In this document: piece after piece, positions 3,199 through 64,000 of the stretch
How positions within the stretch are numbered: the first letter of the stretch is position 1
Layout of the letters: each line of letters begins with the position of its first letter
From: an uncultured virus (IMG/VR IMGVR_UViG_3300042484_003076)
Taxonomy: Duplodnaviria; Heunggongvirae; Uroviricota; Caudoviricetes
IMG/VR virus record: IMGVR_UViG_3300042484_003076
Strand: one strand, 5' to 3'
Length of the DNA: 64,000 nt
Made by a program: the position numbers and the translations under genes
The notes under the pieces: generated by a model
Database searches by the model: none
Told to the model about the DNA's origin: nothing
The model's input: only the letters and a program-made list of their open reading frames with translations

Positions 3199-3523
3199 AT
3201 CTTGCCTTAGTATCCACCCATCCTATTAGTCCCTTATCTGGCAAAACTACTGACACTTGCGATCCTATTGGTAAAGCAGCATTACCAATAAATCGGAAAT
3301 ATCTTAGCGAGCCATCGGGGGCTTTACCCTTAAAACTAGCTGTTGCGATATCGTAGCCTATCACCTCGCAGACTACTACACTATTGTCTTGAGGTTTTTC
3401 TAGCGATAATCGACGGGCTGCATTTGTCTTTAATTGGAGTCTTAATTGGTTCATGATTTTTAAGGGCAAGTAGGGGGCGCGAGTGTGCAGGTTTGATCCA
3501 CAGTAGTGGTTCGCTGGCTCCAT
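3197..3523 (-). CDS. Hypothetical protein at end of tail operon (start likely near 3454)
   Basis: Last ORF of the minus-strand tail block. Confidence 0.5.
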   Translation of the reverse strand: MEPANHYCGSNLHTRAPYLPLKIMNQLRLQLKTNAARRLSLEKPQDNSVVVCEVIGYDIATASFKGKAPDGSLRYFRFIGNAALPIGSQVSVVLPDKGLIGWVDTKAR

Positions 3524-4847: not shown

Positions 4848-6890
4848 TTAGGTGTAGGTAACGTTTACTGTCGCTGTTTGTCGGAATCGTGCCTGTATTC
4901 TAATGCCCTCACTAATAAAGACATTTACGCGCCCTGACTGTCTTATTTTGCCACCAATAAAGGGATCTTGAGTAATCCTTACGGCGACCCTACCAGCTTG
5001 TCTAATAGCCAACTGGATTAGAGCGCTAGCAACTACCACAGGATAAACCGTTTCGGGCGGATCGGATTCAAGAGCAGTGCTAATTACGATTAACCTCATA
5101 CCGATCGCGCATTGGGTTTGGTCGTGTGACCATGACGCGCCATCAGAAAGGCATCGATACCGCACTCCTCTCCACAATATGTCTATTCTAGATAATGGGG
5201 TAAGTGAGGCTATCAGAGTATTACTAATAGCAGTTCCAAATACAAAGCCCTGTTTCCTGCCATAGAGTAAAGCCAGATAAGTATTACCGTATTCAGTTGC
5301 CTGTAATTGGCTCTCTAAATAAGGCACGTCAACAGGTTTAGAGCGTGAGTAAAAGCTCTGACCTGCAAACGGACGGGCTGTTAAAGTTGCTTTAATTTGT
5401 GTCTCTATCGACTCAAATGGTTTACGGTATATTGTCGCAGGTGCTTTAGTCGAGCCATCGGTACTGTAAGTACTTTCGCCACCACTACTAGCCCATTCCC
5501 CCTCGGTAAAATCAAATCTAGTTTGTCGAGTAGATAAAGAGCCAAAATTTAAAACGATACTATTTTGTTGAAAGAAATTTTCAACGTTATAGAAACCATT
5601 ATTCCAAGATTCAACTTTTGCTAATTTTGTATATACAAAATTTTGGTTTCCAGAAACAATATAATTTCGAGTTTCAGTTCTTTTGCTGACTAAAATATCA
5701 GTAAGATCGTCATACGAATAAGTAGTTATAATGTCTTGCGCGTCTTGCCTTGTAGCTGTAAATTCAGGATTCGGATTTACACTAAAATTAACGCCAAAAG
5801 CGCCACTGGTAATCGTAAAAAGTTGACTACTTGTTAGAAATGCGTCTGTTTCTTCTTTCTGGTAAATTAATCGGTTTTTGCTGTCATAGCGCTTAATCGT
5901 AGTAGTCTCAATTGATGGCAACAAAAAAGCCGATTGATTATTCTTTAATAAGCTGAGGTGGTTTTTATATAAAGTCGTTGCTTCAACAAAAGATACAATT
6001 CTTTCTTGAGAGCCATCCCATCCGTAATCAGTGATCGTAGTTCTCTTTGAAATAAAGCGATAATCTACTAAACCTAATGCACCCTCAAGATTTAAAACAT
6101 TACCATAGCTAATTGCTACATTGGTTTTAGGGTAAGAGCTTGTATCAATTGTTGTGGAAATTCCAGCGATTACTAATTGATCTACAGGTGTTTCTACTCC
6201 AGAGCTATCTACTTGATCGAATAGCTGCTCATCTTCGCTGATTCGATAAGTTGCGATCGCACTTGCGGTCAAGTTAATCGCCTTGTTGACAATCGTTCCA
6301 CTGGCATTGGTATGCAAAATATGATTAGCCGATCGCGCCATTTGCGCCGCTACACTGACAAGGCTATTGCCTTCAGTTTTTGGCTGTGGAAACGAGAAAG
6401 GATAAGGAATAGAGCTAATACTGTAAGTCGCACCGCTAGCTGCTAAATATCGCTCTATCACAGTATTTCTCGCTGTGCTTACCCCTGCTACTACAGCACT
6501 TGGATCGGTGTCTGCTGTACGGTAATTTAGCAGCGCACCTTGATCGCCTACTTGTATTCTGATTCTAAAATTTGAGTCGGGCGGCGCGGGTTCTTTCAGA
6601 ATATATAGCGCACCTCCTGATAATGGATGGTTTACCAGTGTTCCCGAATCATTGGCAATCTGGTAAATTACAGAAGCACCCCTAGCCCAATTAGCTCCAA
6701 TAGAGGGTGATGCAAGATAAGTAAATTGTGTGACTTCGTTATAATTGGCTTGCAGTTCAATCTCACCCGTAACAAATACGCCCTCAGCGCCTAATTCGTT
6801 TTGTGAGAGGTTAATATTAATTACGTTGGCTGTACGGGCTATCCCGTTAATCGTTAAGCTGAATTTGCGAGAACTTAGGTTAAGCGCCAT
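4848..6890 (-). CDS. Phage tail tip/baseplate hub-like protein
   Basis: 680 aa, beta-rich, tightly coupled in tail operon. Confidence 0.55.
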   Translation of the reverse strand: MALNLSSRKFSLTINGIARTANVININLSQNELGAEGVFVTGEIELQANYNEVTQFTYLASPSIGANWARGASVIYQIANDSGTLVNHPLSGGALYILKEPAPPDSNFRIRIQVGDQGALLNYRTADTDPSAVVAGVSTARNTVIERYLAASGATYSISSIPYPFSFPQPKTEGNSLVSVAAQMARSANHILHTNASGTIVNKAINLTASAIATYRISEDEQLFDQVDSSGVETPVDQLVIAGISTTIDTSSYPKTNVAISYGNVLNLEGALGLVDYRFISKRTTITDYGWDGSQERIVSFVEATTLYKNHLSLLKNNQSAFLLPSIETTTIKRYDSKNRLIYQKEETDAFLTSSQLFTITSGAFGVNFSVNPNPEFTATRQDAQDIITTYSYDDLTDILVSKRTETRNYIVSGNQNFVYTKLAKVESWNNGFYNVENFFQQNSIVLNFGSLSTRQTRFDFTEGEWASSGGESTYSTDGSTKAPATIYRKPFESIETQIKATLTARPFAGQSFYSRSKPVDVPYLESQLQATEYGNTYLALLYGRKQGFVFGTAISNTLIASLTPLSRIDILWRGVRYRCLSDGASWSHDQTQCAIGMRLIVISTALESDPPETVYPVVVASALIQLAIRQAGRVAVRITQDPFIGGKIRQSGRVNVFISEGIRIQARFRQTATVNVTYT

Positions 6891-7624
6891 TAAATCTTCA
6901 CCCCTGTCTCTTGCAACTCAAACACTGCCATCACATTACCAACCCCCGTGTCAGGGCTAAACGTTGGCTCAATAGGCATTTTTACCTGTAACTTAGGGTA
7001 ATAATTTACCCCGCCGTTTCGCTGGAAGGGAATGCCAACAGATGAACGGGTTTTAGTTGATGATGTTTTCCCCTCTTCAAAATACAGTGTGATTTCGTCG
7101 GTCAACTCTAAGTATGGCGAACCTGTTAGGGTCTGAGCTTCGCGCCGTATATTATTAGCTGTAGACCACATTGCACTTAACTTTAGTGAATCAGCGATAC
7201 TAACTTTTGCTTGAATATTGTATTGTTGCGGATCTTCAAAACTAATGCCCGTATCGATGAAATTTCCGTTTACGCTAAAAGTCCCATTTCCTGATAACCG
7301 AGAACTTTGGCGGGGCGGGGGAGAATCAGAACTAAAATTCCTGAATACAACACTCAGATAAACGCGGATCGAGTGCGTACCACTTCCACCGCTAAGACTT
7401 ATAGCTGATCCCCCCTGCGTAGCTGACACGGTAATAGTCGAGCCTACACTCACGACGTAATAGCTAGTATTTAATGCTAATCCCGTTGGCAATGTGCCTG
7501 TAGTAGTAAAGCGCACAACGTCATCAACCGCAAATACTTGCGTGAATGGTGTTATGGCGCTACCACTAAAAGTAAAGGTATAGGAGCGTCCAAAATATAC
7601 GAGTGTGAGATCTCCGATCGCCAT
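6890..7624 (-). CDS. Putative distal tail protein with an inserted beta-domain
   Basis: First gene of tail-tip block; LPTGLALNTSYYVV motif common in virion proteins. Confidence 0.5.
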   Translation of the reverse strand: MAIGDLTLVYFGRSYTFTFSGSAITPFTQVFAVDDVVRFTTTGTLPTGLALNTSYYVVSVGSTITVSATQGGSAISLSGGSGTHSIRVYLSVVFRNFSSDSPPPRQSSRLSGNGTFSVNGNFIDTGISFEDPQQYNIQAKVSIADSLKLSAMWSTANNIRREAQTLTGSPYLELTDEITLYFEEGKTSSTKTRSSVGIPFQRNGGVNYYPKLQVKMPIEPTFSPDTGVGNVMAVFELQETGVKI

Positions 7625-7827
7625 TGTGAGTCAGGGGATTATTGTGCTAATTATCGCACATCAATCTATGGTACATTTTGATTGCGTTAAATTTCGACTG
7701 ACCTAGATTCTAAGGAGAACCGAAAAGCCGAGATTTTTTGATTTGTGGATTTGTAATGATTTTTGAGAGTTTGAAGGCGATCGCGAGATCGTCTTTTTTG
7801 TTGGGCAAAATTATTTTTAAAATATAG

Positions 7828-7856
7828 TTGACATTACTAACGTAATCAACTATATT
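7828..7856 (+). promoter_or_regulatory. Sigma70-type promoter with palindromic operator
   Basis: TTGACA-17 nt-TATATT; ATTACTAACGTAAT palindrome overlapping the spacer. Confidence 0.8.
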
Positions 7857-7888
7857 TAAATTCATGGAGCGAGAGAGAATCTACTCCT

Positions 7889-8038
7889 ATAGAGGACAAC
7901 TATTTAAACCTGCTTTTCCTGAGCGTAATAACAAGGACGATAGAGGACAACTATTTAAACCTGCTTTTCCTGAGCGTAACAATAAGGACGATAGAGGACA
8001 ACTATTTAAACCTGCTTTTCCTGAGCGTAATAACAAGG
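7889..8038 (+). repeat. About 2.9 tandem copies of a 51-bp unit
   Basis: ATAGAGGACAACTATTTAAACCTGCTTTTCCTGAGCGTAATAACAAGGACG starting at 7889, 7940 and 7991. Confidence 0.97.
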
Positions 8039-8040
8039 GA

Positions 8041-8080
8041 CAAAAAAAGCAGCCGATCAATTGATCGGCTGCTTTTTTTG
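8041..8080. terminator. Intrinsic terminator (perfect 40-bp palindrome)
   Basis: CAAAAAAAGCAGCCGATCAA/TTGATCGGCTGCTTTTTTTG. Confidence 0.85.
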
Positions 8081-8106
8081 TGTGTAAATTATTTTTGGTT
8101 TTTGGG

Positions 8107-8140
8107 TTGACATTGGTTGATTACTAAAGTAATGTATATA
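8107..8140 (+). promoter_or_regulatory. Sigma70-type promoter sharing the operator seen at 7831-7850
   Basis: TTGACA at 8107; 8116-8135 is the reverse complement of 7831-7850 at 17/20 positions. Confidence 0.7.
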
Positions 8141-8173
8141 CATACCAAACAAATAACACAAAGGAAAACGACA

Positions 8174-8380
8174 ATGAAAACTTTGCTAGCACAACAATTA
8201 GCTGACGCATTCCAAGTAACAGGTTGTAATTTAACAGTTTTGACTTCTTTGGATAGAAGTCAAGCCAGTCAAATCTGGAAGCAAATCAACCTAGTTTTAG
8301 GTGACAGCTTGTATCATGTTGATGCTTATGGGTTCTCAGTCATAAAATCAGGCAAACTAACATTCTTTGGTTTTGAATAA
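8174..8380 (+). CDS. Small hypothetical protein (cassette gene)
   Basis: AAGGA RBS before ATG 8174; coupled to the next ORF. Confidence 0.6.
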   Translation: MKTLLAQQLADAFQVTGCNLTVLTSLDRSQASQIWKQINLVLGDSLYHVDAYGFSVIKSGKLTFFGFE

Positions 8381-8787
8381 TGGATATAAACATCTCGTGC
8401 TCGGCTAACGAGCATATCCGTATTTTTATTAATGGCAATCTTGCAGGAGAGGTTGCTATTAATGAATTAGAATCTCACTCTAATTTGTTGCAGGAAGTTG
8501 AGCAAGCCAGATCGTTAAAAGCATTACCCAAAATAGTGCAAAGCGTAGTTAATCAGGTGTTTGAGCTAAAGAACTTTGAGGATCACGTAAATACTACGGA
8601 GGCTAAGAAGCAGTCAGCTTATACGCAAGGCGTAATTGACGGCTTGAATAAAATCAAAATCCCGTTCCCAACTACGTCTAGCGCTCCTGATATCTTGCCT
8701 AGATACGATCCTTCATACGAGAGGGGATATCAAAACGGCGAATTCCTTATAAACCTTTTAAACAGCTTGGACAATGCCCAAACCTAA
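8380..8787 (+). CDS. Hypothetical protein (cassette gene)
   Basis: 135-aa ORF, TAATG overlap with upstream gene. Confidence 0.6.
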   Translation: MDINISCSANEHIRIFINGNLAGEVAINELESHSNLLQEVEQARSLKALPKIVQSVVNQVFELKNFEDHVNTTEAKKQSAYTQGVIDGLNKIKIPFPTTSSAPDILPRYDPSYERGYQNGEFLINLLNSLDNAQT

Positions 8788-8995
8788 CCCCGCAAACCCA
8801 TACCATTGCGATCGCCCTATGCGGCGCAATGGTGTACAAGCCAAATCAGGCGCAATCCAATATCGCTGCAAATGTGGCTTTACCTGTACCGATGGCGATC
8901 GCCCCGCACACCGCCCCTTATTAGGTGATGCGCCTTTGACGCAAGTTGAAAGGAATCGTAGGTATAGAGCTAAGAAGAAAGCTAATTTAAATTAG
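8774..8995 (+). CDS. Small Zn-ribbon DNA-binding protein, family A
   Basis: HC..M.RNG...SGA.QYRCKC plus basic tail GDAPLTQVERNRRYR; paralog of 24660..24929. Confidence 0.65.
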   Translation: MPKPNPANPYHCDRPMRRNGVQAKSGAIQYRCKCGFTCTDGDRPAHRPLLGDAPLTQVERNRRYRAKKKANLN

Positions 8996-9008
8996 TTGCA
9001 AATAGTAG

Positions 9009-9044
9009 TTGACAAATACAGGATATCGATCAATAATAGGTTAT
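9009..9044 (+). promoter_or_regulatory. Promoter of the family also found at 32508 and 60380
   Basis: TTGACAAA...TCGATCAATAATAGGTTAT shared motif. Confidence 0.7.
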
Positions 9045-9070
9045 ACCAAAAAAACACAGAAGGCAAAGCA

Positions 9071-9475
9071 ATGACCGCAACAATCAAAACTATCAAAGGC
9101 GAATTGGTAATCAAGACCGAAGGGCTTGACGTAATGACTATCATCTCTAAGAAATCAGATTTACAGAAAGCGATCGCTAAATCTAAAGCACATCAATGGC
9201 TTATTGACTATTCTGCAAGCAAAGCTAAAAACAAAATTGTTGCATCCAATCAAATCCCATCTACCGCTACTCAAAGCTTTGTTCTTAAAGCTTTCTACTC
9301 ATCTGTCAAACTCGCAGTAGAACAAATGATTGAGTTTGAAGGGTTGAAAATTGATGAAGCGATCACACTTGGGAACAGCTTGATTAAAGGTAACAAGATT
9401 GTTTCTGATTCTCAATTGGTAATGAGTTCAATCAAAGATGCTTTGCGTTATGGTTCGCTAGCTGGAGTTATTTAA
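9071..9475 (+). CDS. Hypothetical protein (cassette gene)
   Basis: ATG at 9071 downstream of the promoter; the ORF-track extension upstream overlaps the promoter. Confidence 0.6.
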   Translation: MTATIKTIKGELVIKTEGLDVMTIISKKSDLQKAIAKSKAHQWLIDYSASKAKNKIVASNQIPSTATQSFVLKAFYSSVKLAVEQMIEFEGLKIDEAITLGNSLIKGNKIVSDSQLVMSSIKDALRYGSLAGVI

Positions 9476-9479
9476 AAAG

Positions 9480-9591
9480 ACGAAAGTGCAGGGATCGAAC
9501 CTGCGATAGTTAGCCACGTTGAGGGGTTTCCGCTTACGCTAACTCTTGGTACTCCTCCCCTACCAATGCAAAGCCATTTTGCTTACTCTCG
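9480..9591 (-). ncRNA. tRNA-like RNA with non-canonical anticodon loop and very long variable arm
   Basis: Acceptor CGAGAGT/ACTTTCG, D arm GCAA/TTGC, TTGGT/ACCAA stem, T arm GCAGG-TTCGATC-CCTGC; TTGCAA...TATGAT upstream. Confidence 0.65.
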
Positions 9592-9668
9592 AAGCATTAA
9601 TCATATCACTACTAAACAACTAATTGCAAAGTGTTTGAATCTAAACGTTTTGATGGAATTAAAACTTA

Positions 9669-9887
9669 ATGCCTAAATCACGCGCAGAAATTTATCGCGA
9701 TTGCTATCTAAGGCGCACAGCAGACAAACTCCGCTACTACTGTACGCAATGCGATCGCCAACTTAGGTCTGATACAACTCATCCTGATATTTGCCGTGCT
9801 TGTTGGCTTAAAACGGATGAGGGTAAGGAGTATTTGAGGCTGAAGAAAGCAGAGTCAAGAGCTAAGTTGAAAGCTGAAAAATGCTAA
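9669..9887 (+). CDS. Small Zn-finger protein, family B
   Basis: CxxC...CxxC, basic; paralog of 29848..30057 (MPKSRA.IY.DCYL.RTA...ICxACWLKTD.G.EY.RLKK.ESR). Confidence 0.7.
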   Translation: MPKSRAEIYRDCYLRRTADKLRYYCTQCDRQLRSDTTHPDICRACWLKTDEGKEYLRLKKAESRAKLKAEKC

Positions 9888-9954
9888 AATATTGGTGGCT
9901 TCGCGATGTTGACAGCATCCAAGCCCCTATCCACTAAACACCAGTGCAACAGCA

Positions 9955-10593
9955 ATGTCTAATCTTATCAAGAATTGGAATGATCGCGCTATCCGTATTC
10001 GTAGCGATCGCTATGTTTCGTTAACCGACATGGCTCAAGCCACGGGGGAATGTATTAATGATTTCCTCCAACAGCCAAGAACTTTGTCTGTGATATCCAA
10101 GTTTTACATGAATCAGGAAGGCTTAATAAGGCATCCGATAACAGAAGAAGGCGATCAGGTTTGGGTTTGTACCCCATTAGCCAAGGAGTTTAGCTACCAG
10201 TCGCAGAATCACGAATTTTCTGTTTGGATGGATGACATATTATGGGGAGATTTTTTACACCCTGAAGTCTTACCTGAAATTGTGCAATTAGTCAAACCAT
10301 CGCATAAATACGCAGATCTAAACGAAGATTCTAGAACGGTATCAACTTTTGTATATTTCATTCTGAATGAAAATACTAATACAGTAAAAATTGGTTTCTC
10401 TAGGAATCCTGACACACGGCTTAATGCTTTTCAAACAGGCACTCTTGACAGCTTGGTAATACTTAAAATCATTGCTGGTAATAAAAACGATGAAGCCGCA
10501 ATACACAGTAGATTCTCGGATTACAGGGTGTCAAAAAACAGAGAGATATTCAGGTATGAGGGTTTGCTTAAATCATTTATTGATGATCTATAA
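9955..10593 (+). CDS. KilA-N domain fused to T5orf172/GIY-YIG-like domain
   Basis: N-terminal IRIRSDRYVSLTDMAQA; C-terminal VYFI...VKIGFSRNPDTRL...E..IH..F...EIF. Confidence 0.8.
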   Translation: MSNLIKNWNDRAIRIRSDRYVSLTDMAQATGECINDFLQQPRTLSVISKFYMNQEGLIRHPITEEGDQVWVCTPLAKEFSYQSQNHEFSVWMDDILWGDFLHPEVLPEIVQLVKPSHKYADLNEDSRTVSTFVYFILNENTNTVKIGFSRNPDTRLNAFQTGTLDSLVILKIIAGNKNDEAAIHSRFSDYRVSKNREIFRYEGLLKSFIDDL

Positions 10594-32560: not shown

Positions 32561-33019
32561 ATGAACACCAGCCAAATCGCACAAATCGCAACCGCTTTAA
32601 ACGTCTCTCCCAACCAAATCAAGAGAGCTGAGGAATGGAAGAATGTCCTTTTTGTTGTAGTTCAAGGTAAGGGCGCTCGTTTTGTATCTAAGAAGGTAAT
32701 TAAGGAGATGAACATTGAGATGAACATTAATCAATTCAGCCAAGAGGTTAATCAAGCTTTTGGGAATATTTTTTCTGTGAAAACCGATTTTTATGGAAAC
32801 ACACAAGATTTTATTGCATTAGACTTACAGAATAACGGCGAATATCATCGCTCCATAAAATTTACTTGTGAAGAAGGGTTGTCGCGGTATGGGATGTGGA
32901 AGGTTGAAGAAGGCTGTTTTAATGGCTACGGGAAAACTTTAAACGATGCGATCTCACAAGTTCGTAAAATGACATCCGATTGCACTACAAAAGCTTTTTT
33001 GATGCCAACTTATGCCTAG
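32561..33019 (+). CDS. Hypothetical protein upstream of csf1
   Basis: 152 aa; N-terminal module shared with 25252..25416. Confidence 0.65.
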   Translation: MNTSQIAQIATALNVSPNQIKRAEEWKNVLFVVVQGKGARFVSKKVIKEMNIEMNINQFSQEVNQAFGNIFSVKTDFYGNTQDFIALDLQNNGEYHRSIKFTCEEGLSRYGMWKVEEGCFNGYGKTLNDAISQVRKMTSDCTTKAFLMPTYA

Positions 33020-33078
33020 AGTCGGCAACCACGGACATTGAATAAACTTAATTAGCCATCCATAGGGTGGCTTTTGCC

Positions 33079-33756
33079 ATGAATAATAATAATTACTGCT
33101 ACCTTTGCGCCGCCCCTAACGCTCATAAACCGTTAGTTCTCAAAGATTCATTCACTGCACATAGTAGCGCTAGATGCCCTGAGTCTAAGTATTTATGCGA
33201 TCGCTGTGCATGGGTGATTCCGTTAAGGGCTTTTTATTGGAATGAAGCGAAGGGAAAATACAGCACATTATTTGCTAGGGGCTGGTCATGGCTCCTTTCT
33301 GCTGATGATGCGTATGGTTCTTATCCTAAATTTGGTAATCAACATACTGAGGGGGGGAACACGCTAGAAATAGTTGATCGCCTCCCCACACGCGCTCAAA
33401 TCAGGACTTGGTTGCTTGATCCGCCAAAGCCGCCCTTTACTATTTGCATTGCGGAATCAGGGCAAAAACATATTTTGCCTTGGGCGTTAGAGGCAACTAA
33501 TCGCGATTATTTCCCAGTGCAATTTGAGCTTGATACGTTGCATATATATCGATCTGCTTTTACGCATTTACTCACACGATATGAAGAGCTTATGGCTATG
33601 GGATTCTCAAAAACCGAGATTAATAGTGGCAACTATCGCTCTGATAAATTAGCTAAGAGCATCAGTGAGTACGCAGCATGTGAGGCTGTGATCGCTGCTA
33701 AGCGTGGTAATCGCTTGCTAGATTTGGTTAGCTATGTTGCAAAAGTATCAGAGTAA
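33079..33756 (+). CDS. csf1: Type IV CRISPR-associated Csf1 (Cas8-like large subunit)
   Basis: CxxC..., F.......PES.YLCDRC, LLDPPKPPF.I.I..SGQKH...WA motifs; identical N-terminus survives as a remnant in the csf operon. Confidence 0.8.
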   Translation: MNNNNYCYLCAAPNAHKPLVLKDSFTAHSSARCPESKYLCDRCAWVIPLRAFYWNEAKGKYSTLFARGWSWLLSADDAYGSYPKFGNQHTEGGNTLEIVDRLPTRAQIRTWLLDPPKPPFTICIAESGQKHILPWALEATNRDYFPVQFELDTLHIYRSAFTHLLTRYEELMAMGFSKTEINSGNYRSDKLAKSISEYAACEAVIAAKRGNRLLDLVSYVAKVSE

Positions 33757-40222: not shown

Positions 40223-41832
40223 GATTCCGTCTCCGTTTCATCGTCATTGCTATCGTCATCAATCTCAGTCGTTGCAGGTTGATTTACTGGCATATCCACA
40301 GGCGGCGCGATCGCCACAATCTTCTGATCTTTTGGTAAGAAGTTAACCCTATGCAAAATCTCTGTAGCTGCTTCTTCAGTTAAGCCTTTATTAATTACCT
40401 CGAAGATAGTGCGAATTAAGTTCACATCCGCAGGGGCAAGAATAAAGCTCAAATCTACGTCAATTGTACCGTGATCCTCGGTTACGTCTTCACCTTCCCA
40501 CATTGCCCAATGGCAAAAGATTTGTTGAGAGCATGACTCTTTGTTAACCTCATACTCTTGTAAGCCTGCTTCGTTTTGCCCTGCTTTGATACTTACCTCA
40601 GTAGCAGATTGTTGAACAAAAGACTCACCCAAGAAATTGAAAACAGTCTGCTTAATCAATGCCTCTAATCTATCTAGCGCTTGAATCATAGGCGCAACAC
40701 TATTTGCGTCAGCTTGCAAATAGTAAACCTTAGCAGCCCCGATCTGGGTTAACACTGTCTCAATGACAGCAGCGCCGCCTGTAGACAAAGGACTGAGTTT
40801 CTCTGGAATAAAATCAATATGCTCACGTACAGCAGTAGGATTCATCTTACGAACTGTCGCAAGCCAATCACTACACACTTGGTAATGAACATGATTCTTT
40901 TGCTGTAAATCAAGTAACGGGGGTATCGTATCCCAAGGGTTAGCACTGGTTACTGAGTAAAGCACAAAGGGGATTTGACTCAATGGCAAGCCATTGGTAT
41001 CTAGCAATGGTCTAGGCGCTTCTTCTACTCGATATTCCTTTTCGCCTTTGTCATTAGTTTCAATGCAAGTTACCGATCGCATCACAGCATAATAAATACG
41101 ATCTTTTTCTTGCACTTTGATTAGCTCGTATTCCCAGCAATAATTTTTCATTGATTGCTTGTAACGGGTTTCGCTAATTACCTCACTCCGATCAATCGTG
41201 ACGTGCTTAAGCAGTACAGAGCCGTCATTGGTGTATTCGTAATCCTTGATATCAATATCTAATCTAGGAATTAGCACTGAGTAAGGACGCAAATCTAATT
41301 GTTGTTCAACTGCACGATTAGGGATTTCGCCAAAATTAGGATAAAGGGTAAGCACCCCTACAAAGCCATCTCTAACAGCCATGCGATCGGCTTCAAGAAA
41401 GAAAGCTCTGATCGATGTTCCGCGCTTATCAAAATTCTTTGAGGCATTGACAACCGACTCAGGCACATTGCCACTAAGCACCCATTTACTTAGCAGACTA
41501 GAAACAATTTTGACGGCTGGTTTAAAGAAATTAACAAATAGCGATCGCCTTAATCTGAAATACCACTCTTTCGGTGTTTCGCTTGGCATGAGTGGTAAAT
41601 ATTCCTCAGCCAAATTATCAATAATCTGATCGAGGTTTTCGCCATAGATCCAAGCGCTTTGCCCCTCGTAGAAATCTATGCAACGCCTGACATTAGCTTG
41701 CTGTCTTTGATAAGCAATGCTCTTTAATGTTGGGTTGTTATCGTCGCCAAGTATGTTACCGCCTCGATAGCCTTTAGCGATCGCTTCTGGCAATTGATTT
41801 GGCTGTAACGTGATTAAAGTTTCTGTTGTCAT
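40219..41832 (-). CDS. Portal protein (DUF4055-like)
   Basis: YLP..P.E....Y.RL.R..F.N, IPFV, PPLLDL...N..HYQ..SD, SATE motifs. Confidence 0.9.
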   Translation of the reverse strand: MTTETLITLQPNQLPEAIAKGYRGGNILGDDNNPTLKSIAYQRQQANVRRCIDFYEGQSAWIYGENLDQIIDNLAEEYLPLMPSETPKEWYFRLRRSLFVNFFKPAVKIVSSLLSKWVLSGNVPESVVNASKNFDKRGTSIRAFFLEADRMAVRDGFVGVLTLYPNFGEIPNRAVEQQLDLRPYSVLIPRLDIDIKDYEYTNDGSVLLKHVTIDRSEVISETRYKQSMKNYCWEYELIKVQEKDRIYYAVMRSVTCIETNDKGEKEYRVEEAPRPLLDTNGLPLSQIPFVLYSVTSANPWDTIPPLLDLQQKNHVHYQVCSDWLATVRKMNPTAVREHIDFIPEKLSPLSTGGAAVIETVLTQIGAAKVYYLQADANSVAPMIQALDRLEALIKQTVFNFLGESFVQQSATEVSIKAGQNEAGLQEYEVNKESCSQQIFCHWAMWEGEDVTEDHGTIDVDLSFILAPADVNLIRTIFEVINKGLTEEAATEILHRVNFLPKDQKIVAIAPPVDMPVNQPATTEIDDDSNDDETETES

Positions 41833-46015: not shown

Positions 46016-47746
46016 ATGCCAGTACTACAAAAAAATCTACCTTTATTGCATACGCCTACGTTTCAGCAGATGAGTTCGCTACCTCCAGCGGCTGCAACGG
46101 TTGCAAACGCATTTGTTGCTAACGATCCTACAGGGCGATCGCCATTTGTGCTGTACGTTGTATCTGCTACGGTGCAATATTTATATACAGATAATGGATG
46201 GATTCAAATTCCTTCAGGGGCATTAGCGACTTTTGGGGCTGGAGCTTGTGCGGTATATCACCCATGGAGTAATACCTACACGGCAAACGGTGGAAGCACA
46301 ACAACAGCAACAGTAGCGGCGGGTACGCATAATATTACTGGCTTAGCGCTTGGCGAGACAATTGAGTTTGTTGTTAGTGGCACTAACAACGGATTGCGTC
46401 GCACAATCACAGGCGTAATTAATAACGCGGGTACAGGCACAATTACAATCCAATGGTCGGGCGCTGTTGCAACGGCTGTATTAAACACTCACACGTTTAG
46501 GATTAGCACAGGCAGATTCTTTGTCTATGGCGGTGGTGCAACCACGGCGGGATCGTTTAAATCCTTTGATGTTGCTACTATGTCTTGGTCTGGGAACTTA
46601 ATAGTAACAGGCGTTCCAACTTTTACCAATGACGGGCGTATGGCGTTAATGTATCAGCGACCTAAAAGCTTTCAATCAGGGCTTGCGACGGCTGTTACAA
46701 ACACGACTAACGCGACTATATCGGACAATACAAAAAGCTGGAAAGTAAATCAATGGATTGGCTATTGGGTAAGGATTACCTCAGGGGCGGGTTCGCCTAA
46801 TGGCAGTACAGGGGCGATCAATCCGTTACTTCAGATCACTAGTAATACAGCTACAACGCTTACTCTATCAGGTGTTTTTGCAACAACTCCTCCCGATACA
46901 ACTTCTTCATATTCAATAGAAGACATACTTGCTTCTGGAGTTGCGACTTCTGGCAGTACAACAACGTTGGTTAACTCAACTAAATCAGGCGGATCGGCTT
47001 GGACTGCTAACCAATGGACTAACTCTCGCGCAAGAATCACGGGAGGGACAGGGCTAGGGCAAACATCAATTATTGCTAGCAATACAGGCGACACCCTAAC
47101 TATCGGTACTGTCGGCACTGCGATCGCGTCGGGGTCTATTTATGAGATTGAAGGTGACGAAAACTTTATCTATTTGGCTGGTAATGCTGCTGTTGCCATG
47201 TACAAATACTCAATTTCGGCGGGTACTTGGGCAACAGTAGCGCCAACAACCGCAAGAACGACAGCGCTAGGGGCTTCTCCAAGCTTGAACGCCGCTTACC
47301 ATACAGGCTGTCCAAATTGGAGTAGTGAACCAGCGATTTTAAACGGTCGTTACCTTTATTCTTTTAGGGGCGCTGCTTCTGGGGTTGTGGATCGCTTTGA
47401 TATAGCTGGAGGTACGGCTGGGGCTGGGGCGTGGGCTGTAGTTACTACAGTGAACGCCGAAACATTTACCACAGGCGCAAGCTTTGGTATCTGGAAGGGT
47501 AAAATATACATCAGGAAAGAGTCGGCATCAGGTGTGGCGCAAAGGTTTTTTTACTATGATGTCGTTAAAAACGCACTGCTACCTTTTACCACACTAAATT
47601 ACCCAGATGGCGCGGCGTTAGCTGGGACTAAGATCTGGGTAAAAACGTTTGACCAGAACCAAACCGATGCCGATGCCGATGCCGTAAATTGGCTTTACAC
47701 GCTACAATCGACAGGCAATGCTTTACACAGAATTATGCTTTTTTAG
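46016..47746 (+). CDS. Putative fibre/receptor-binding protein
   Basis: 576 aa, Thr/Gly/Ala-rich, repeated W..NQW....RIT.G.G module, propeller-like C-terminus. Confidence 0.7.
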   Translation: MPVLQKNLPLLHTPTFQQMSSLPPAAATVANAFVANDPTGRSPFVLYVVSATVQYLYTDNGWIQIPSGALATFGAGACAVYHPWSNTYTANGGSTTTATVAAGTHNITGLALGETIEFVVSGTNNGLRRTITGVINNAGTGTITIQWSGAVATAVLNTHTFRISTGRFFVYGGGATTAGSFKSFDVATMSWSGNLIVTGVPTFTNDGRMALMYQRPKSFQSGLATAVTNTTNATISDNTKSWKVNQWIGYWVRITSGAGSPNGSTGAINPLLQITSNTATTLTLSGVFATTPPDTTSSYSIEDILASGVATSGSTTTLVNSTKSGGSAWTANQWTNSRARITGGTGLGQTSIIASNTGDTLTIGTVGTAIASGSIYEIEGDENFIYLAGNAAVAMYKYSISAGTWATVAPTTARTTALGASPSLNAAYHTGCPNWSSEPAILNGRYLYSFRGAASGVVDRFDIAGGTAGAGAWAVVTTVNAETFTTGASFGIWKGKIYIRKESASGVAQRFFYYDVVKNALLPFTTLNYPDGAALAGTKIWVKTFDQNQTDADADAVNWLYTLQSTGNALHRIMLF

Positions 47747-49829: not shown

Positions 49830-50002
49830 TACAACCCTCCTAAAAACTCATTTTTAGCAATCTTGACCATCAATGCTTGCTGCCCCAAATACAGCAGATG
49901 TAGCTCAATGAGTAGCTGCTTAGCTGAGTCAATGTCAATGTTTTGGATTTGTTGGCAGAATAGAGCGTGAGTAAACGCTTTTTCGGGCGGTAGGTCATTC
50001 AT
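49829..50002 (-). CDS. nblA: NblA-like phycobilisome degradation protein (57 aa, not in ORF track)
   Basis: LPPEKAF....FCQQIQNIDIDSAKQLLIELHLLY..QQALM..IAK matches the NblA pattern; ATGA and TAATG overlaps with both neighbours. Confidence 0.65.
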   Translation of the reverse strand: MNDLPPEKAFTHALFCQQIQNIDIDSAKQLLIELHLLYLGQQALMVKIAKNEFLGGL

Positions 50003-52130: not shown

Positions 52131-52223
52131 TATCTCTCTCCAAATAATTTAATAATGCGATCGCACCTACCCTTGATCGCGTGAATGTGGCTTCCAGTAG
52201 GGATAGGGTATAAGAATTAGTTG

Positions 52224-52682
52224 TTAGCCATCGCCATAGCCACAACCATCGCCACAACCATCGCCACAACCATCACCACAACCATCGCCAGAGCCATCGC
52301 CAGAACCACAACCATAACCAGAGCCATCACCAAAGCCAAAGCCAGAGCCAAAGCCAGAGCCATCACCATAGCCATAGCCAAAGCCAGTATTTAGATCTTC
52401 CATACAGCAACCTCCGCGATTGAATCTATTGTGATGTATTCTGGAATCATTTACACCCTCTCAATCATCGCCATAGCCATAACCATAGCCATAACCATCG
52501 CCATCGCCAGAGCCAGAGCCAAAGCCAAAGCCAAAGCCAGAGCCACAACCAAAGCCAGAGCCAGAGCCAGAGCCAGAGCCATCGCCATCGCCAAAGTCAA
52601 AGCCAGAGCCAGAGCCAGAGCCATCACCATCGCCAAAGTCAAAGCCAGAGCCAAAGCCATAATCAGTATTTAGATCTTCCAT
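52224..52682 (-). repeat. Two Gly-X hexamer repeat tracts (ORFs MEDLNT(GX)n at 52461-52682 and about 52224-52403)
   Basis: GGY-KNT hexamers; 43-bp direct repeat at 52385-52427 and 52664-52706. Confidence 0.85.
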
Positions 52683-52963
52683 ACAGCAACCTCCGCGATT
52701 GAATCTTTCGCGATTTCTGTCACTGACAGAATTTCAATCACTTCGGTGACTATGATTCTGTCAACTTCCGCAGGAAATTTGCAATTACTAGGATCACTAG
52801 TTCCTGTTTGAGCTAGCTGAGAAAGGGATGCTGCCCCTGCCCATTTCCATAAACGCCGAGCGTTGCGTATTGTTGCTTGCTTACCTTCAAAAGCTTCAAG
52901 AAATCCCGCGAATACACCCGCGCTGTAAGTTCGCACAATTACATATTGATCAATCATTGCCAT
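52670..52963 (-). CDS. Conserved phage protein (DUF6948-like)
   Basis: VIVRTYSAGVFAG.L......NARRLW.W.GAASLSQLA..G. Confidence 0.75.
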   Translation of the reverse strand: MAMIDQYVIVRTYSAGVFAGFLEAFEGKQATIRNARRLWKWAGAASLSQLAQTGTSDPSNCKFPAEVDRIIVTEVIEILSVTEIAKDSIAEVAVWKI

Positions 52964-53218: not shown

Positions 53219-54382
53219 CTATGACAGAATATCGCGATACCGTAGCAGACTGCACTCGTTGTCAGGGGCGGCTTTGCGGAACTCTAATCCGTAAGCGCTG
53301 TAATCGAATCTGTGGGTTTTCCTAAAGGTATTCCTAGCAAATGGACATCCTCTAGATATTGCAAGCTGATAAGCCATCTCTAGCGTCATCCATTCGTTCT
53401 CAAATTCTGTTGCTTGCACCCGTGAGAAGAAAGAAATCTCATGATGATCACGATTGTAGCGATGGATTTCCCCTGCTACAGAGCGATTGTAAAAAAGTTT
53501 GGATAATTTTCTTAGCTCAATATTCTCGCCTAGCAGCTCGTTCAGCTTGTAAGCAATTGTTACAGCATCCTGCCATTTATCGGTAAGCACTGAGTTAATC
53601 TGCTCAGTCGAGATAATCCGTTTAGCGACTCCCTTGGCTTTGTCTGATTCAACTTTCTTGCGGGTGCGTGTGCGTTTTGGATTACTCCAATCAAGTAGCA
53701 ATTTAGAAACATCAGGGTGCATCCTATACCGTTTTTTGAGCGATGGTAGATACACTTTTAGGCTTGCATATTCACCGCCGCTAGCCTTATATGCAAGCAA
53801 AGCTTTTATACGCTGACCATCGGGGCGATCGCGGATCGGTGGTTTTTGTCGTGGGCATAACGGGGCACTGTAGGCAAAAAAGCTGTATAGATTCAGGATT
53901 GATAGCAAACCACTCAAACAAGGCTTTAAACACGCAAAAACATATAAGTACGTTGGTGATTTGCGATCTGTTAATCTTTCGCGGTTACGAATCCGCTTAC
54001 GTTGCTTTTTGGCTTTCGGCTTTGCAACATTCTTGGGCGGCTTTGTCTTTGGGCGATCGCTTTTCGGTTTTGGCGGTGGAGCTGCGATCGCCTCTAACTC
54101 TGGTTCTGGTCTAGCTTTTGGCGGTTGTAATTTTGGCTCGTCACCAATATGCAAAACGTTGCGATCTAATAGCGACTGCCATAGGCTGGACCACTGATTT
54201 TTATACACCAAATACCGAGCTACGAATAACGCATTAGTGGCAATAGCGCGATCATCTTTGAGCTTGCGCCTTTGCTCATGCGCTGCGATCGCACTTAGGA
54301 TCGGCGCAACTTGTCGCCATATTGCGGGGCTGGTATCAGGGGATGGGATCGAGGGGATGCAAATGGGTAGGGATGGTTTCAT
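53219..54382 (-). CDS. Basic Pro/Lys-rich hypothetical protein, probably DNA-binding
   Basis: 387-aa ORF. Confidence 0.5.
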   Translation of the reverse strand: MKPSLPICIPSIPSPDTSPAIWRQVAPILSAIAAHEQRRKLKDDRAIATNALFVARYLVYKNQWSSLWQSLLDRNVLHIGDEPKLQPPKARPEPELEAIAAPPPKPKSDRPKTKPPKNVAKPKAKKQRKRIRNRERLTDRKSPTYLYVFACLKPCLSGLLSILNLYSFFAYSAPLCPRQKPPIRDRPDGQRIKALLAYKASGGEYASLKVYLPSLKKRYRMHPDVSKLLLDWSNPKRTRTRKKVESDKAKGVAKRIISTEQINSVLTDKWQDAVTIAYKLNELLGENIELRKLSKLFYNRSVAGEIHRYNRDHHEISFFSRVQATEFENEWMTLEMAYQLAISRGCPFARNTFRKTHRFDYSAYGLEFRKAAPDNECSLLRYRDILS

Positions 54383-55339: not shown

Positions 55340-55426
55340 TAGGATCGGCGCAACTTGTCGCCATATTTCGGGGCTGGTGCCAGGGGATGGGATAGCGGAG
55401 ATGCAGATGGGTAGGGATGGTTTCAT
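55340..55426 (-). pseudogene. Diverged duplicate of the first ~29 codons of 53219..54382
   Basis: MKPSLPICISAIPSPGTSPEIWRQVAPIL vs MKPSLPICIPSIPSPDTSPAIWRQVAPIL. Confidence 0.8.
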
Positions 55427-60497: not shown

Positions 60498-61079
60498 TTA
60501 TTCAAAAAACCCGCATCCTAGATGTTTGCGACCTCCCAACCCTTTCTCTTGTAATATTAAAGACTCGTTAGAGCGCAAATCTGAAAACATTACAGGGTAT
60601 ACAGCACACGGTTGCTTTTTAATAATTAGCTGCTCCTTGCGCCCTATTGTTGGCAGTGTATTAATATCAAACTTTGCTAGTTGCTTACCTAGCGACACCG
60701 CAAACCTAGTAAGATCGGGTTCACGATTGTTGTCGGTTTTAATTGATACCCAAGCCGCTAGATTCTCTTGAGATTTTAGCTCTGTGCCATTAACCAGCTT
60801 GAGTTTAATCAACTCTTTGCCTAAATGGATTTGACAATCAAAAAGCATCGTTAGCTCTGTAATTAAATCTTTGGAGCAACGTAGCTTTATGGTGTTTTGA
60901 GTTAAACGTAATGTGCGATCGTCAAAAATATTTGTGTTACTGATTCTACCGATCGCCCACTCAGGGTTATCTTTGAGCTTAGGAGCTAATCCCGTCAAGG
61001 CAGAATAGAGACAGTAATGGTAGTTTCTAGGGATTAAAGAGCCTTCAATACTGAAAAGAAATTCTACGAAGTTACTCAC
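60498..61079 (-). CDS. cas6: Cas6 family endoribonuclease
   Basis: N-terminal F.I.G..IP.NYHY.LYSAL and C-terminal S..LQEKGLGGRKHLGCGFF G-rich loop. Confidence 0.88.
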   Translation of the reverse strand: MSNFVEFLFSIEGSLIPRNYHYCLYSALTGLAPKLKDNPEWAIGRISNTNIFDDRTLRLTQNTIKLRCSKDLITELTMLFDCQIHLGKELIKLKLVNGTELKSQENLAAWVSIKTDNNREPDLTRFAVSLGKQLAKFDINTLPTIGRKEQLIIKKQPCAVYPVMFSDLRSNESLILQEKGLGGRKHLGCGFFE

Positions 61080-61128
61080 GTTCTTTTATTCCTTTGGTAT
61101 TTGTGTATTTCTTCAATTCCGCATGACT

Positions 61129-61157
61129 TTCTTAGATCGTTCTTAGATCGTTCTTAG
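61129..61157. repeat. 11-bp tandem repeat (TTCTTAGATCG, about 2.6 copies) upstream of cas6
   Basis: Direct reading. Confidence 0.85.
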
Positions 61158-61369
61158 GGATATCTCATGTATCGGCGCACAAAAAAGCCGTTGCCACTGT
61201 GACGGTTTTTGATAATGGTAAAATAATAGACTAGCCGAAGAATTTAAGCGTAACGATTAAATACTAAATAAGCGTCGCCTACCTTTGTTGGAGAGAAGCA
61301 GACAGGCGATCGCGAAGTGTGTTGTAAAGAAAAGCTTCTCCGCTTTATTTTAGCACTGCCAAAAGGATA

Positions 61370-61435
61370 GCTAGCATCTTTAAGGACTAATGCTTCAAAA
61401 CCGTTAGGGGCGGCGCAAAGGTAGCAGTTATTCAT
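61370..61435 (-). pseudogene. csf1: csf1 N-terminal remnant
   Basis: MNNCYLCAAPNGFEALVLKD; 27 bp identical to 33095-33121; unrelated sequence follows. Confidence 0.8.
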
Positions 61436-61787
61436 TGATAATCACCAATCTTTTCTCACTATCTACGGGTTGATGTTTGTTGGCAACGGATAGCAAAAAA
61501 AGCCCGTCATTTCCAGCCCTTACCCTGTGAGGTTGCGAACCGTCTATAAAGTAGCAGGTTCCCTTGACGATTGGTTCGGTTTCAGCGCCGCAATCAATCC
61601 ATCCAGACCCCTCTACTCCAAACAAAATATGATCACCCTCATGGGTATGAAGAGAAGTTTTTTCATTAGGTGCAAAATTCAACATATCAGCAGCAAAGCC
61701 GTCTTTTTTTACCAGTGGCAATCCGACAGCTTGACTGCCATACATCTGATACCAGTAATCAGCATCTAAATAATTTTTAATTTGCAT
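61428..61787 (-). CDS. Cupin-domain protein within csf operon
   Basis: HTHEGDH....EG.G and PH.V.AG cupin metal-binding motifs. Confidence 0.85.
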   Translation of the reverse strand: MQIKNYLDADYWYQMYGSQAVGLPLVKKDGFAADMLNFAPNEKTSLHTHEGDHILFGVEGSGWIDCGAETEPIVKGTCYFIDGSQPHRVRAGNDGLFLLSVANKHQPVDSEKRLVIINE

Positions 61788-62445
61788 ACAATAATCCTTT
61801 TAGGTATTCAAAATATTCTGGCGAAATCTTGCGAAACTCTTCTAATCTTGTAGCTTGATATTGATTGTTAGTATTTTTGCTGACATGATCTGTAGTTCGT
61901 TTTGCGCCTAAATCATAGGCTTTTAGGTATGGCAATTCATGAAAAAAGGTATAAGCCCAAATATCGTTTTCACTCCAATTAAAAACAGGGCAAGCGCGAT
62001 AATCTCCTTTTTTATATTGATAGATAGCACCATTTTTTAGCAAGGTTGCTTTACGTTTTGCGCTTTCTTCTATCCGCAATCCAACAAAAGCGACAGGATA
62101 ATCAATCCATAATTTTTGTGACTTAACTTTGTTAGGGACATGATCGCCTTGCATCAAAATAGTTTGAATGTTTAGCCCAAATTTGTCCTGATATTTTGAT
62201 TCTGTTTCAGCATAATTACTAATCATTTCTCTTTCATAATGTCCAAAAGAAATAGCCAAAATATTAGGACAAATCGACTGCACCAAATGAAGCATTACGA
62301 CTGAATCTTTACCCCATGACACCGCAACATAAGAAGGAGCGATCGCTAAAGCCTCTCGAATAATCTCTTTAGCTTTCTCAACTTTGCGCTTAAATGTTGG
62401 CAGTGTCGCATGAGCTAAAAATGCATCGCGTTCTATTCCCTCCAT
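61777..62445 (-). CDS. CysH-like (PAPS reductase family) protein of type IV-B loci
   Basis: VAVSWGKDSVVM, FVGLRIEES..R, CPVFNWS..DIWAY. Confidence 0.88.
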   Translation of the reverse strand: MEGIERDAFLAHATLPTFKRKVEKAKEIIREALAIAPSYVAVSWGKDSVVMLHLVQSICPNILAISFGHYEREMISNYAETESKYQDKFGLNIQTILMQGDHVPNKVKSQKLWIDYPVAFVGLRIEESAKRKATLLKNGAIYQYKKGDYRACPVFNWSENDIWAYTFFHELPYLKAYDLGAKRTTDHVSKNTNNQYQATRLEEFRKISPEYFEYLKGLLYAN

Positions 62446-63119
62446 ACGTTATCCGTTGGCATATAGCACATAGATTTATTCGCCGCTAACCATGTAGGAG
62501 GTCTCCACCCCCAGTTCATCATATTGATAGATTGAGGCTGTGGAATCATATTAATTGGCATTGGTCGGGCTAAACTTTCACCTCTCCACAAATGCCAATC
62601 ATGTTCAAAAGGAAGTACTTCCCATTTGTGTACCTGTCCGCAACCTTGCGATCGCTTCTTGCCAAGGTTCGTAACATTTAGAATTAGTTCGCTAATCTTG
62701 TCAGCATTGCCAATCGCAAACCAGTGTATAGTCTGCATTTCGCGATCATATCGTGGTAAATCATAGGCTTTAAAATGCCCTTGCGAACTATCAACCTTAG
62801 CTTTCTTTTTACCCCAATCAAGGTGTAGTTCTTGCTTGTCCCATCGCTTACGGTAACGCTGAGTTTGTTGATGATTTTCGATGTAATGTGGTGAACTCAC
62901 GGCCCAATACCACTCGCCTTTAAGCGTCTTCCGAGCGATCGGCATTTCATCAAAAATCAAGGGCAGATTCTTTTCAGCATCCGCAGCCGTTGGATTAGGC
63001 GTGATTAGCCCTAATTGGTCTAACAATTGATACTCAATCAGAGCATCGAAGCTAGGGGACCAGTCATCATAGGCAACTAGCGGCGTTGCCATGTGTGCGA
63101 TTATTTGGAGGTTATCCAT
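62433..63119 (-). CDS. csf3: Type IV CRISPR-associated Csf3 (Cas5 group)
   Basis: L.I.AHMATP, FDALI, G.FKAY.LP, WFAIG, LGKKRSQGCGQV..WEV, RPMP, RPP.W. Confidence 0.85.
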   Translation of the reverse strand: MDNLQIIAHMATPLVAYDDWSPSFDALIEYQLLDQLGLITPNPTAADAEKNLPLIFDEMPIARKTLKGEWYWAVSSPHYIENHQQTQRYRKRWDKQELHLDWGKKKAKVDSSQGHFKAYDLPRYDREMQTIHWFAIGNADKISELILNVTNLGKKRSQGCGQVHKWEVLPFEHDWHLWRGESLARPMPINMIPQPQSINMMNWGWRPPTWLAANKSMCYMPTDNVWRE

Positions 63120-64000
63120 TCAATAAACTCCGAATATCGCTCTTAGAATCAGCTAGAAAGCCTTTGTAATCTTCGAGATATTCTTTATACCTTGCGTGAG
63201 ATTCAGTAGCGCGATCGCTTAATTTCTGAGCATGAGGTGTAATCGTCATAAACTCACCGCGATCGCCCTCCGCAGTCTCAAACCAGAATTGCATAGAACA
63301 TAGTCCGCAACCCGTTCCTGATTGACCGCCTAAGTATGGCGATTCAGCGAACTTGAGTAATGCATCTGCAATAAATCCTTCTTCGATTCTGGTGACGTTT
63401 GCGCTCCAATAAGAGTACAAAGTAGCACCTGTTTGGAGTAGCCAATTACCCATAATCATCTGTTGGCTTTTCTCTTTTTCGGGCTTTGCTTTTTCGCTTT
63501 TACCTTTCTTGGTTTCAGGCTCCGAAACTATACCAAATAGATCGCATTGAGAAATCATCTTTTGAGGTTCTGGAGTAGCGCCGATCAAATGTTTTGCAAA
63601 GTTAGGATCGTGAAGTGAATCGCGCCTTGTCTTTTGGCTATAGGTAAGCCAATCGGAATAATATCGAAGCTTCTCACCTAAGAATGGCATCCATTCATCA
63701 AGCAAAGCCTTGAGATCGTAATTGCTAACATCCAAAGGAGAACCATGATGTAGCCATTGATTCACTCGTTGACTATGCTGTAAGTCTTTGCCATCAATAA
63801 TCTGCTCCAGTGCTGGTATGACTTCGATTGGCAACGCAGGGGGGAACATCTGATAAAGATACTTAGCGCTTTCTACACAAGCCAAATAAGCATCACCAAC
63901 AGCGATTCGACCGTGCACCATTTGAGCATCGGATACACCAAACAATCCTTTAGGTTTGGCAGTTCCTAACACTGAAAGGCATGGCAAAAGTTGCCTAATC
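63112..64000 (-). CDS. csf2: Type IV CRISPR-associated Csf2 (Cas7 group), 5' end outside window
   Basis: P.LSVLG, GRI.VG.A...C.E, TRRD, SQQMI......G, LGGQSGTGCG; frame open to the window edge. Confidence 0.85.
   Translation of the reverse strand, partial: IRQLLPCLSVLGTAKPKGLFGVSDAQMVHGRIAVGDAYLACVESAKYLYQMFPPALPIEVIPALEQIIDGKDLQHSQRVNQWLHHGSPLDVSNYDLKALLDEWMPFLGEKLRYYSDWLTYSQKTRRDSLHDPNFAKHLIGATPEPQKMISQCDLFGIVSEPETKKGKSEKAKPEKEKSQQMIMGNWLLQTGATLYSYWSANVTRIEEGFIADALLKFAESPYLGGQSGTGCGLCSMQFWFETAEGDRGEFMTITPHAQKLSDRATESHARYKEYLEDYKGFLADSKSDIRSLLNG

Follow-up and report, generated by a model that had tools for sequence, protein, structure and literature searches.

We identified a compact transcription unit in the window, the 64,000-nt stretch of DNA that was analysed. 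The window is a tailed-phage genome with tail, capsid, portal-like and methyltransferase genes, and every sequencing run that contains it is labelled as a lake, freshwater or aquatic metagenome; the cassette described here is present in roughly 13 lake studies. The octamer GCGATCGC, the HIP1 palindrome typical of cyanobacteria, occurs 73 times in the window compared with 0.64 expected, an excess that makes a cyanobacterial host very likely. The leftward structural genes end at 7624, and the rightward early genes start behind a terminator-like hairpin at 7773-7796. There, a cassette of promoter, repeats and terminator opens the early region of this HIP1-rich cyanophage as a separate transcription unit. 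The features of the locus, in window coordinates, are as follows.

7773..7827, plus strand: left module boundary, made of a hairpin resembling a terminator (GAAGGCGATCGCGAGATCGTCTTT with a T run) followed by GTTGGGCAAAATTATTTTT
7828..7856, plus strand: promoter P1, TTGACA-17-TATATT (consensus scan, 11/12)
7833..7846, no strand assigned: operator-like palindrome ATTACTAACGTAAT within the P1 spacer, with a second copy in P2 at 8120-8133
7864..7888, plus strand: 25-nt leader with a 5' hairpin (RNA fold)
7864..8064, plus strand: 66-aa leaderless reading frame across the repeats, a rival reading of the same stretch (ORF list)
7889..8041, plus strand: three 51-nt units, each made of block A (TAGAGGACAACTATTYAAACCT), a variable 12-13-nt core (GCTTTTCCTGAG) and block C (CGTAATAAYAAGG)
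8040..8081, no strand assigned: bidirectional intrinsic terminator (terminator scan and RNA fold)
8107..8140, plus strand: second promoter region P2, with TTGACA at 8107-8112, the palindrome at 8120-8133 and a non-canonical -10 hexamer

The original prediction had described a stand-alone unit in which a consensus promoter, a short leader, repeats and a strong terminator follow one another, and all four parts were confirmed. P1 scores 11/12 and is the best promoter within 6500-10500. Because the scan gave 11 sites where 9.6 were expected, the consensus match counts for little by itself; independent support comes from a 29-nt promoter, 27/29 identical, upstream of the cassette in a related phage fragment (G003, described below). 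P1 also drives protein genes in three other viral contigs (L022, L026 and L028); altogether it is present in four viral contigs, with protein genes behind it in three of the four. The 14-bp palindrome ATTACTAA[C/A]GTAAT has exactly two exact sites in the window, one in each of the early promoters flanking the cassette, and is likely the operator for one dimeric regulator. From the spacing to the -10 hexamer we infer that transcription starts at or near 7864. The leader hairpin GGAG...CUCC occurs, as proposed, in both the MFE and the centroid fold.

Tandem Repeats Finder reported 2.9 copies of a 51-nt period at 7889-8038 (95% matches, score 286), in agreement with the copy number first given, and a repeat search placed three in-register copies at 7889, 7940 and 7991, with identities of 100, 96 and 94%. 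Copy 2 differs by AATAAC/AACAAT and copy 3 ends in GGG, both as first described. The 21-nt block TAGAGGACAACTATTTAAACC occurs three times in the window (0.01 expected) and nowhere else in it at up to 3 mismatches, and neither block A nor block C was found outside the cassette as a dispersed cis site. The repeats run into the strong bidirectional terminator at 8040-8081, which has a 10-bp G+C-rich stem and the loop AATT. A 7-A run before the stem and a 7-T run after it would allow it to function in both directions.

Behind the terminator, a T run plus GTGTGTAAATTATTTTT resembles the left boundary. The region P2, which is absent from the list of the consensus promoter scan and conserved ahead of early genes in L021 and L023-L025, precedes the genes at 8174, 8380 and 8774, so that, as predicted, these genes have a promoter region of their own. 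The proteins encoded at 8174-8377, 8380-8784 and 8774-8992 have no family match in Pfam, PADLOC or PHROGs. Small Cys-rich, zinc-ribbon-like proteins with a basic tail are encoded in the window at 8774-8992 and 9669-9884, and in the related contig L003 at 3222-3500. Zinc-ribbon-like genes of this kind, for which we found no family match, are conserved neighbours of the cassette in all three lineages in which it occurs.

The repeat is present in RNA libraries, in which DNA carry-over is possible. Four RNA-library runs were mapped as contigs; the figures for X18 and X19 are identical, leaving at most three independent data sets. An 81-nt contig lies on the repeat in all four runs, which is the size expected of a collapsed 51-nt repeat at a word length of 31. 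Word depth on the repeat was 16.5, 7.2 and 23.6, compared with 5.1, 4.5 and 3.2 on the downstream genes, an excess of about what three collapsed copies would yield. The RNA-library contigs do not cover 7600-7871 or the terminator, in a data type in which repeats interrupt contigs and some records are lost to a filter.

Elsewhere in the window, a 57-aa ORF on the minus strand (49832-50002) has a weak match to NblA (phycobilisome degradation; E 0.0022, below Pfam's cut-off), which would fit a cyanophage. Long arrays with periods of 6, 12, 24 and 42 nt (of the CATAGC / GCCATCGCCAGA type) lie at 52215-52738 amid small minus-strand ORFs. An 87-nt direct repeat at 54296-54382 and 55340-55426 (92% identical, 1044 nt apart) has its copies near the starts of two adjacent minus-strand genes.

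Relatives and distribution of the cassette

Viral, metagenome and genome collections, searched with several words and with the translated frame, yielded four copies of the cassette in all, from three lineages. The copy closest to that of the window is in a near-identical metagenome contig (L017), with three units and AATAAC in each. A complete 75.5-kb phage (G002) has a different promoter and two units but no terminator, and a zinc-ribbon gene has these units as its 5' UTR. The third lineage is represented by a 20.8-kb fragment (G003), with a P1-type promoter and a leader of the window's length. Next come part of a unit, in which 1 nt is deleted, and an unrelated insert of 99 nt; a single full unit and the terminator complete the cassette, and a zinc-ribbon gene begins 27 nt farther on. 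Against the window, the G003 cassette is identical at 27/29 positions in the promoter, 17/26 aligned positions in the leader and 42/54 in the terminal unit. Its leader also has a 5' hairpin, shifted in register by one base, and its terminator is retained, a C-G pair of the stem having become U-A by compensatory change. The copy number of the unit is three in the window, three in L017, two in G002, and one plus a fragment in G003.

Two side features of these relatives may be mentioned. A 33-nt stretch of the G003 insert (L011 2524-2622, minus strand) is 85% identical to the interior of a gene in G001 (41482-41513) and G004; the match has an E value of 0.002 in a 380-kb search and may be due to chance. 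About 750 nt downstream of the G002 cassette there is a tRNA gene (L003 3862-3935, minus strand of the locus; Rfam RF00005, 33.3 bits), and no tRNA genes were found in the window. G002 also has a zinc-ribbon-like paralog at another place.

A protein-database search with the window frame returned solely 49-aa gene calls (5 sequences, one cluster), and their sequences indicate two-unit versions of the same frame. The cassette with its flanks had no blastn match among plasmids, nor among phage records, from which records of the window's own genome were possibly excluded. The exact unit 20-mer was not found in 185,579 genomes, and exact unit 19-20-mers occurred in these genomes or in metagenome records only in a sister phage. 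Several candidates were rejected: all exact-word matches to CCTGCTTTTCCTGAGCG in six viral stretches were due to chance, as were seven of the eight metagenome stretches matching a unit 19-mer (the eighth being L017), and the three matches to a gapped unit pattern comprised two known copies and one chance match. Other tandem repeats in the relatives (51 nt and 21 nt in G001, 24 nt in G002) are in-frame duplications within long ORFs.

Among 14 viral contigs that carry the neighbouring zinc-ribbon gene, two have the units; the further copies are those of the window and of one metagenome contig. In G001, the nearest complete relative, the same junction is immediately followed by a protein gene. 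The cassette is accessory. Both of its flanks carry the sequence 'terminator, T-run, GTKKGYAAAWTTATTTTT, promoter', and it can therefore be considered an accessory module of a mosaic early region, or a moron in Hendrix's sense. The junction recurs: the arrangement 'terminator, T-run, GTKGGYAAAATTATTTTT, promoter' is found at 7773-7827 and 8070-8112 in the window and around 1950-2150 in L021-L031, with different cargo genes behind it in different relatives, and it looks like a recombination boundary at which modules are shuffled.

Product of the cassette

The product of the cassette is most likely a non-coding RNA without a described relative. The original prediction had also preferred an RNA over a peptide, and the homologs agree with it. 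The 66-aa frame is intact only in the window lineage. In G002 the frame of the units begins only past a TAG that lies within the -10 hexamer, and no ATG, GTG or TTG lies ahead of the units; in G003 the frame starting at the ATG runs for 21 codons before a stop, and a 1-nt insertion in the full unit brings a TAG into frame. Of the eight leader codons that follow the ATG, seven are different in the window and in G003, and each of the seven changes the amino acid. Neither the frame nor the amino acid sequence is kept among the homologs, as it would be for a small protein. In the six full units from the three lineages, blocks A and C are nearly invariant (about 95% conserved), and the 12-13-nt core between them has diverged by about 50% between lineages. 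Invariant blocks around a changed core are not the pattern of neutral decay. Because the frame has been lost in two lineages while the nucleotide blocks stay conserved, an RNA product is favoured.

The variable sites outside the core (A2 columns 18, 43, 46 and 52) are, in all four cases, synonymous third positions of the 66-aa frame. The chance of this is about (1/3)^4, or roughly 1%, for a pattern that was noticed after the fact. Taken at face value, it would speak for present or past coding.

The original prediction had drawn an H-type pseudoknot in each unit. The named stems are present as written and fit six units, whereas statistical support for the pseudoknot was not obtained. Stem 1 (UGCUU/GAGCG), stem 2 (UCCU/AGGA) and the hairpin GAUAG-AGGACAA-CUAUU together leave 96.2% of cells paired over the six units, and two pairs of the pseudoknot model are changed on both sides, from U-A to C-G in each stem. 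Column shuffles reached the observed pairing values in 86-103 of 500 trials (the 96.2% pairing in 103/500), and one double change also goes along with a unit being the terminal one. With only three independent lineages, the covariation test is without power. As modelled, the unit pseudoknot would be sterically possible. Folds of single units were no more stable than those of shuffled sequence (z from -0.45 to +0.85), and the z of -3.9 for the whole-transcript fold is due to the terminator.

Possible functions

Our preferred explanation, which we hold tentatively, is that the cassette encodes a trans-acting, multivalent decoy RNA for an RNA-binding protein or nuclease. We infer this decoy function, the action in trans and the identity of such a partner from the architecture of the cassette, its conserved single-stranded blocks, its variable copy number and its accessory status. 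The cassette would be a 'moron', an early gene of accessory character, and its non-coding RNA would measure about 215 nt, with the 5' hairpin first, then three A/U-rich 51-nt units of weak structure and, at the end, the terminator hairpin. The host RNA polymerase would probably transcribe it from the consensus promoter right after infection. The blocks UAGAGGACAACUAUUYAAACCU and CGUAAUAAYAAGG, each with an AGG/GGA motif, could then bind a host RNA-binding protein or ribonuclease, with the copy number of the units setting the dose of the decoy, by the same logic as in ToxI, pseudo-ToxI and sponge RNAs. No candidates for the partner protein were found. A mimic of a type III antitoxin, the function originally proposed, is a sub-case of the decoy reading and would account for only a minor share of whatever weight that reading deserves.

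Very few cases of RNA-based phage counter-defence have been described (pseudo-ToxI and Racr), and we know of none from cyanophages. The cassette would be a tractable new example from a cyanophage of bloom lakes, and the short unit RNA could be used as bait for the host or phage protein that it binds.

The units could also have no present function, being a remnant (perhaps of a small gene that decayed) that was duplicated recently and is caught between a mobile promoter and a terminator. The family is tiny and patchy, and the window copies, at 94-100% identity, point to a recent expansion. The G003 cassette, with its 1-nt deletion, 99-nt unrelated insert and 1-nt insertion, looks decayed, G002 has lost the leader and the terminator, and the variable sites follow the codon pattern described above. 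A remnant would not be expected, however, to keep blocks A and C at about 95% identity where the core has diverged by about 50% and the frame has gone, nor to keep a consensus promoter and a terminator with a compensatory change. We regard this explanation as unlikely; if the cassette were a decayed small gene, the result would be an ordinary one.

A cis-acting leader RNA, in which the units act on their own transcript or on the polymerase, for example through antitermination or control of the downstream zinc-ribbon gene, seems rather unlikely. On this reading the arrangement in the window would be derived, a second promoter and two genes having entered behind the terminator. In all three lineages an early promoter does immediately precede the units, which have the same orientation; in G002, no terminator separates them from the zinc-ribbon gene whose 5' UTR they form, and in G003 the zinc-ribbon gene needs read-through because the 27 nt after the terminator leave no room for a promoter. 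Unlike put-type RNAs, however, the units have no stable fold, and zinc-ribbon genes that are 96-97% identical occur in six relatives without units upstream. The downstream genes of the window possess a promoter region of their own, and the copy number of the unit varies among relatives.

A leaderless repeat peptide of 66 (or 49) amino acids, (RGQLFKPAFPERNNKDD)n, had been named in the original prediction as an alternative product, and for the window lineage we consider it quite unlikely. The ATG at 7864 lies exactly 7 nt past the -10 hexamer, where a leaderless mRNA would begin, and the period of 51 nt equals 17 codons. The window, L017 and the five two-unit variants all have the frame open, and the synonymous sites would suit a peptide as they would a former gene. 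With a 51-nt unit, however, any frame that is open in one copy is open in every copy, and the opposite strand likewise has an open frame. The stop at 8062-8064 is inside the terminator loop, as had been stated, and the last residues vary with the stem (P to S, Q to H); the peptide has no family match in Pfam or PHROGs. The missing start codon in G002, the broken frame in G003 and the unconserved leader codons argue against it as well.

It is very unlikely that the cassette provides the RNA of the phage's type IV (Csf) system, as a spacer-less surrogate array that is cut by Cas6 and loaded into Csf or as a jamming RNA. PADLOC models identify type IV genes in the window, which are located as follows.

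63115-63987, minus strand: Csf2/Cas7 (PADLOC)
62436-63119, minus strand: Csf3/Cas5 (PADLOC)
61780-62445, minus strand: PAPS-reductase (cysH-like) gene (model search)
60501-61079, minus strand: Cas6 (PADLOC)
33067-33753, plus strand: Csf1/Cas8 (PADLOC), 29 kb from the other type IV genes

A cupin gene also lies within the type IV set at 60501-63987 (minus strand). Among the four near-complete relatives, Csf3 occurs in all four, Csf1 in three (with a short remnant in G005) and Cas6 in two; the phage Cas6, used as a query, found no relative in the genome collection or in phage records. CRISPR arrays are present in G004 at 46614-46915 (L071), in G005 at 32911-33382 (L073), and in L072 and L074, where they sit in the early region downstream of the zinc-ribbon gene. 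They have five to seven copies of a 37-nt repeat (CTTCCAATCAGCCGATCGCTTAACCAGAAGTTTCACC) and full-length spacers of 34-40 nt (one of 12 nt), and none of these spacers matched the genomes in hand. The window, G001, G002 and the searched 20 kb of G003 yielded no array. The 9-mer CAGCCGATC, common to the cassette terminator and the 37-nt repeat, was judged to be chance or HIP1-like sequence bias.

The attraction of a type IV RNA is that the phage has Csf1, Csf2, Csf3 and Cas6 and no CRISPR array in the window, and that arrays (in four viral contigs) and the cassette (in the window, L017, G002 and G003) are never in one record. Over about eight related records, this mutual exclusion is not significant. 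Each unit also has a small hairpin adjoining AUUUAAAC, which presumably resembles the common 8-nt crRNA handle. The units lack variable spacers, however, and the cassette does not travel with Cas6: G002, which is 100% complete, has the cassette and no Cas6, G001 and G004 have Cas6 and no cassette, and G001 has neither array nor cassette. No target of the units was found in the window or in five related genomes. A role as substrate or guide of the Cas6/Csf complex, offered earlier as an alternative, is weakened by these observations. Because the cassette and Cas6 occur apart, and because the unit is unrelated to the 37-nt repeat used by the relatives' arrays, the cassette is not a regular type IV substrate. 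The narrower proposal, in which the 51-nt array takes the place of a CRISPR array where the Csf genes lack one and its units are loaded into Csf complexes or jam them, is highly improbable. If it were true, the array would give a fixed-sequence ribonucleoprotein for conflicts between phages or between phage and host. A phage family with a type IV system and with arrays in some of its members is, in any case, a natural set of genomes in which to ask which RNAs such complexes use.

As an antisense RNA, the unit has no target that stands out, the best unit duplex in the window (-35.5 kcal/mol) being within the range of four shuffled units (-29.9 to -37.6) and the five related genomes holding no match longer than 13 exact or 15/16 bases.

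Comparison with known RNA systems

Like the put-type leaders of HK022, the cassette follows immediately on an early promoter and precedes a terminator and early genes. Unlike them, it has no stable, conserved two-hairpin fold and is missing from most relatives with the same downstream genes.

The decoy reading brings to mind the CsrB and RsmZ sponges. The CsrA binding consensus contains GGA, and GGA is repeated in the cassette, once per unit in a hairpin loop (GAUAG-AGGACAA-CUAUU) and once in a single-stranded linker (ACAAGGAYG); both the sponges and the cassette are stand-alone, terminated genes. The cassette differs in having only six motifs. To our knowledge, cyanobacteria lack CsrA, and no CsrA-like protein was found in the window.

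Phage PhiTE is said to evade ToxIN with pseudo-ToxI repeats, and RNA anti-CRISPRs offer a second precedent for decoy RNAs of phages. The latter (Racrs) are solitary repeat units in viruses that compete for Cas proteins in a dose-dependent manner (PMC10651486). The cassette resembles them in being phage-borne and in having its own promoter and a small non-coding RNA as its presumed product. Racrs are defined by their likeness to CRISPR repeats, whereas the unit does not resemble the 37-nt repeat of the phage family.

The closest parallel in architecture is with the type III antitoxins. No test favoured a type III antitoxin mimic, the function in the original prediction, there being no Rfam, toxin, plasmid or exact 20-mer genome match. 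A search against Rfam gave 36 matches at E up to 10 in 7000-9000, none to an antitoxin family; nearly all lie on the terminator and are due to chance, and the G002 and G003 cassettes matched no RNA family in Rfam. The absence of a toxin-like gene behind the cassette, which the original prediction had itself pointed out, was borne out with regard to ToxN, CptN and TenpN, and models of ToxN or other defence toxins had no match among the neighbouring proteins. PF13958 was absent from the nearest complete relative, as it was from the control genomes. The string 'cyanobacteri' is absent from the main text of the 2025 tenpIN survey (PMC12283969). An earlier study describes type III antitoxin families from Firmicutes, Fusobacteria and Proteobacteria, and recognizes their loci by tandem direct repeats with a promoter before and a terminator after them (PMC3401426).

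In contrast to these antitoxins, the cassette has no following toxin and resembles them in neither sequence nor structure, with no sequence or covariance-model match, and its unit is 51 nt long compared with the 36 nt given for ToxI in that study (PMC3401426). In common with them, it consists of 2.9 direct repeats of 51 nt between a promoter and a Rho-independent terminator, its copy number varies among relatives, it is carried by a phage, and each unit could form a small H-type pseudoknot.
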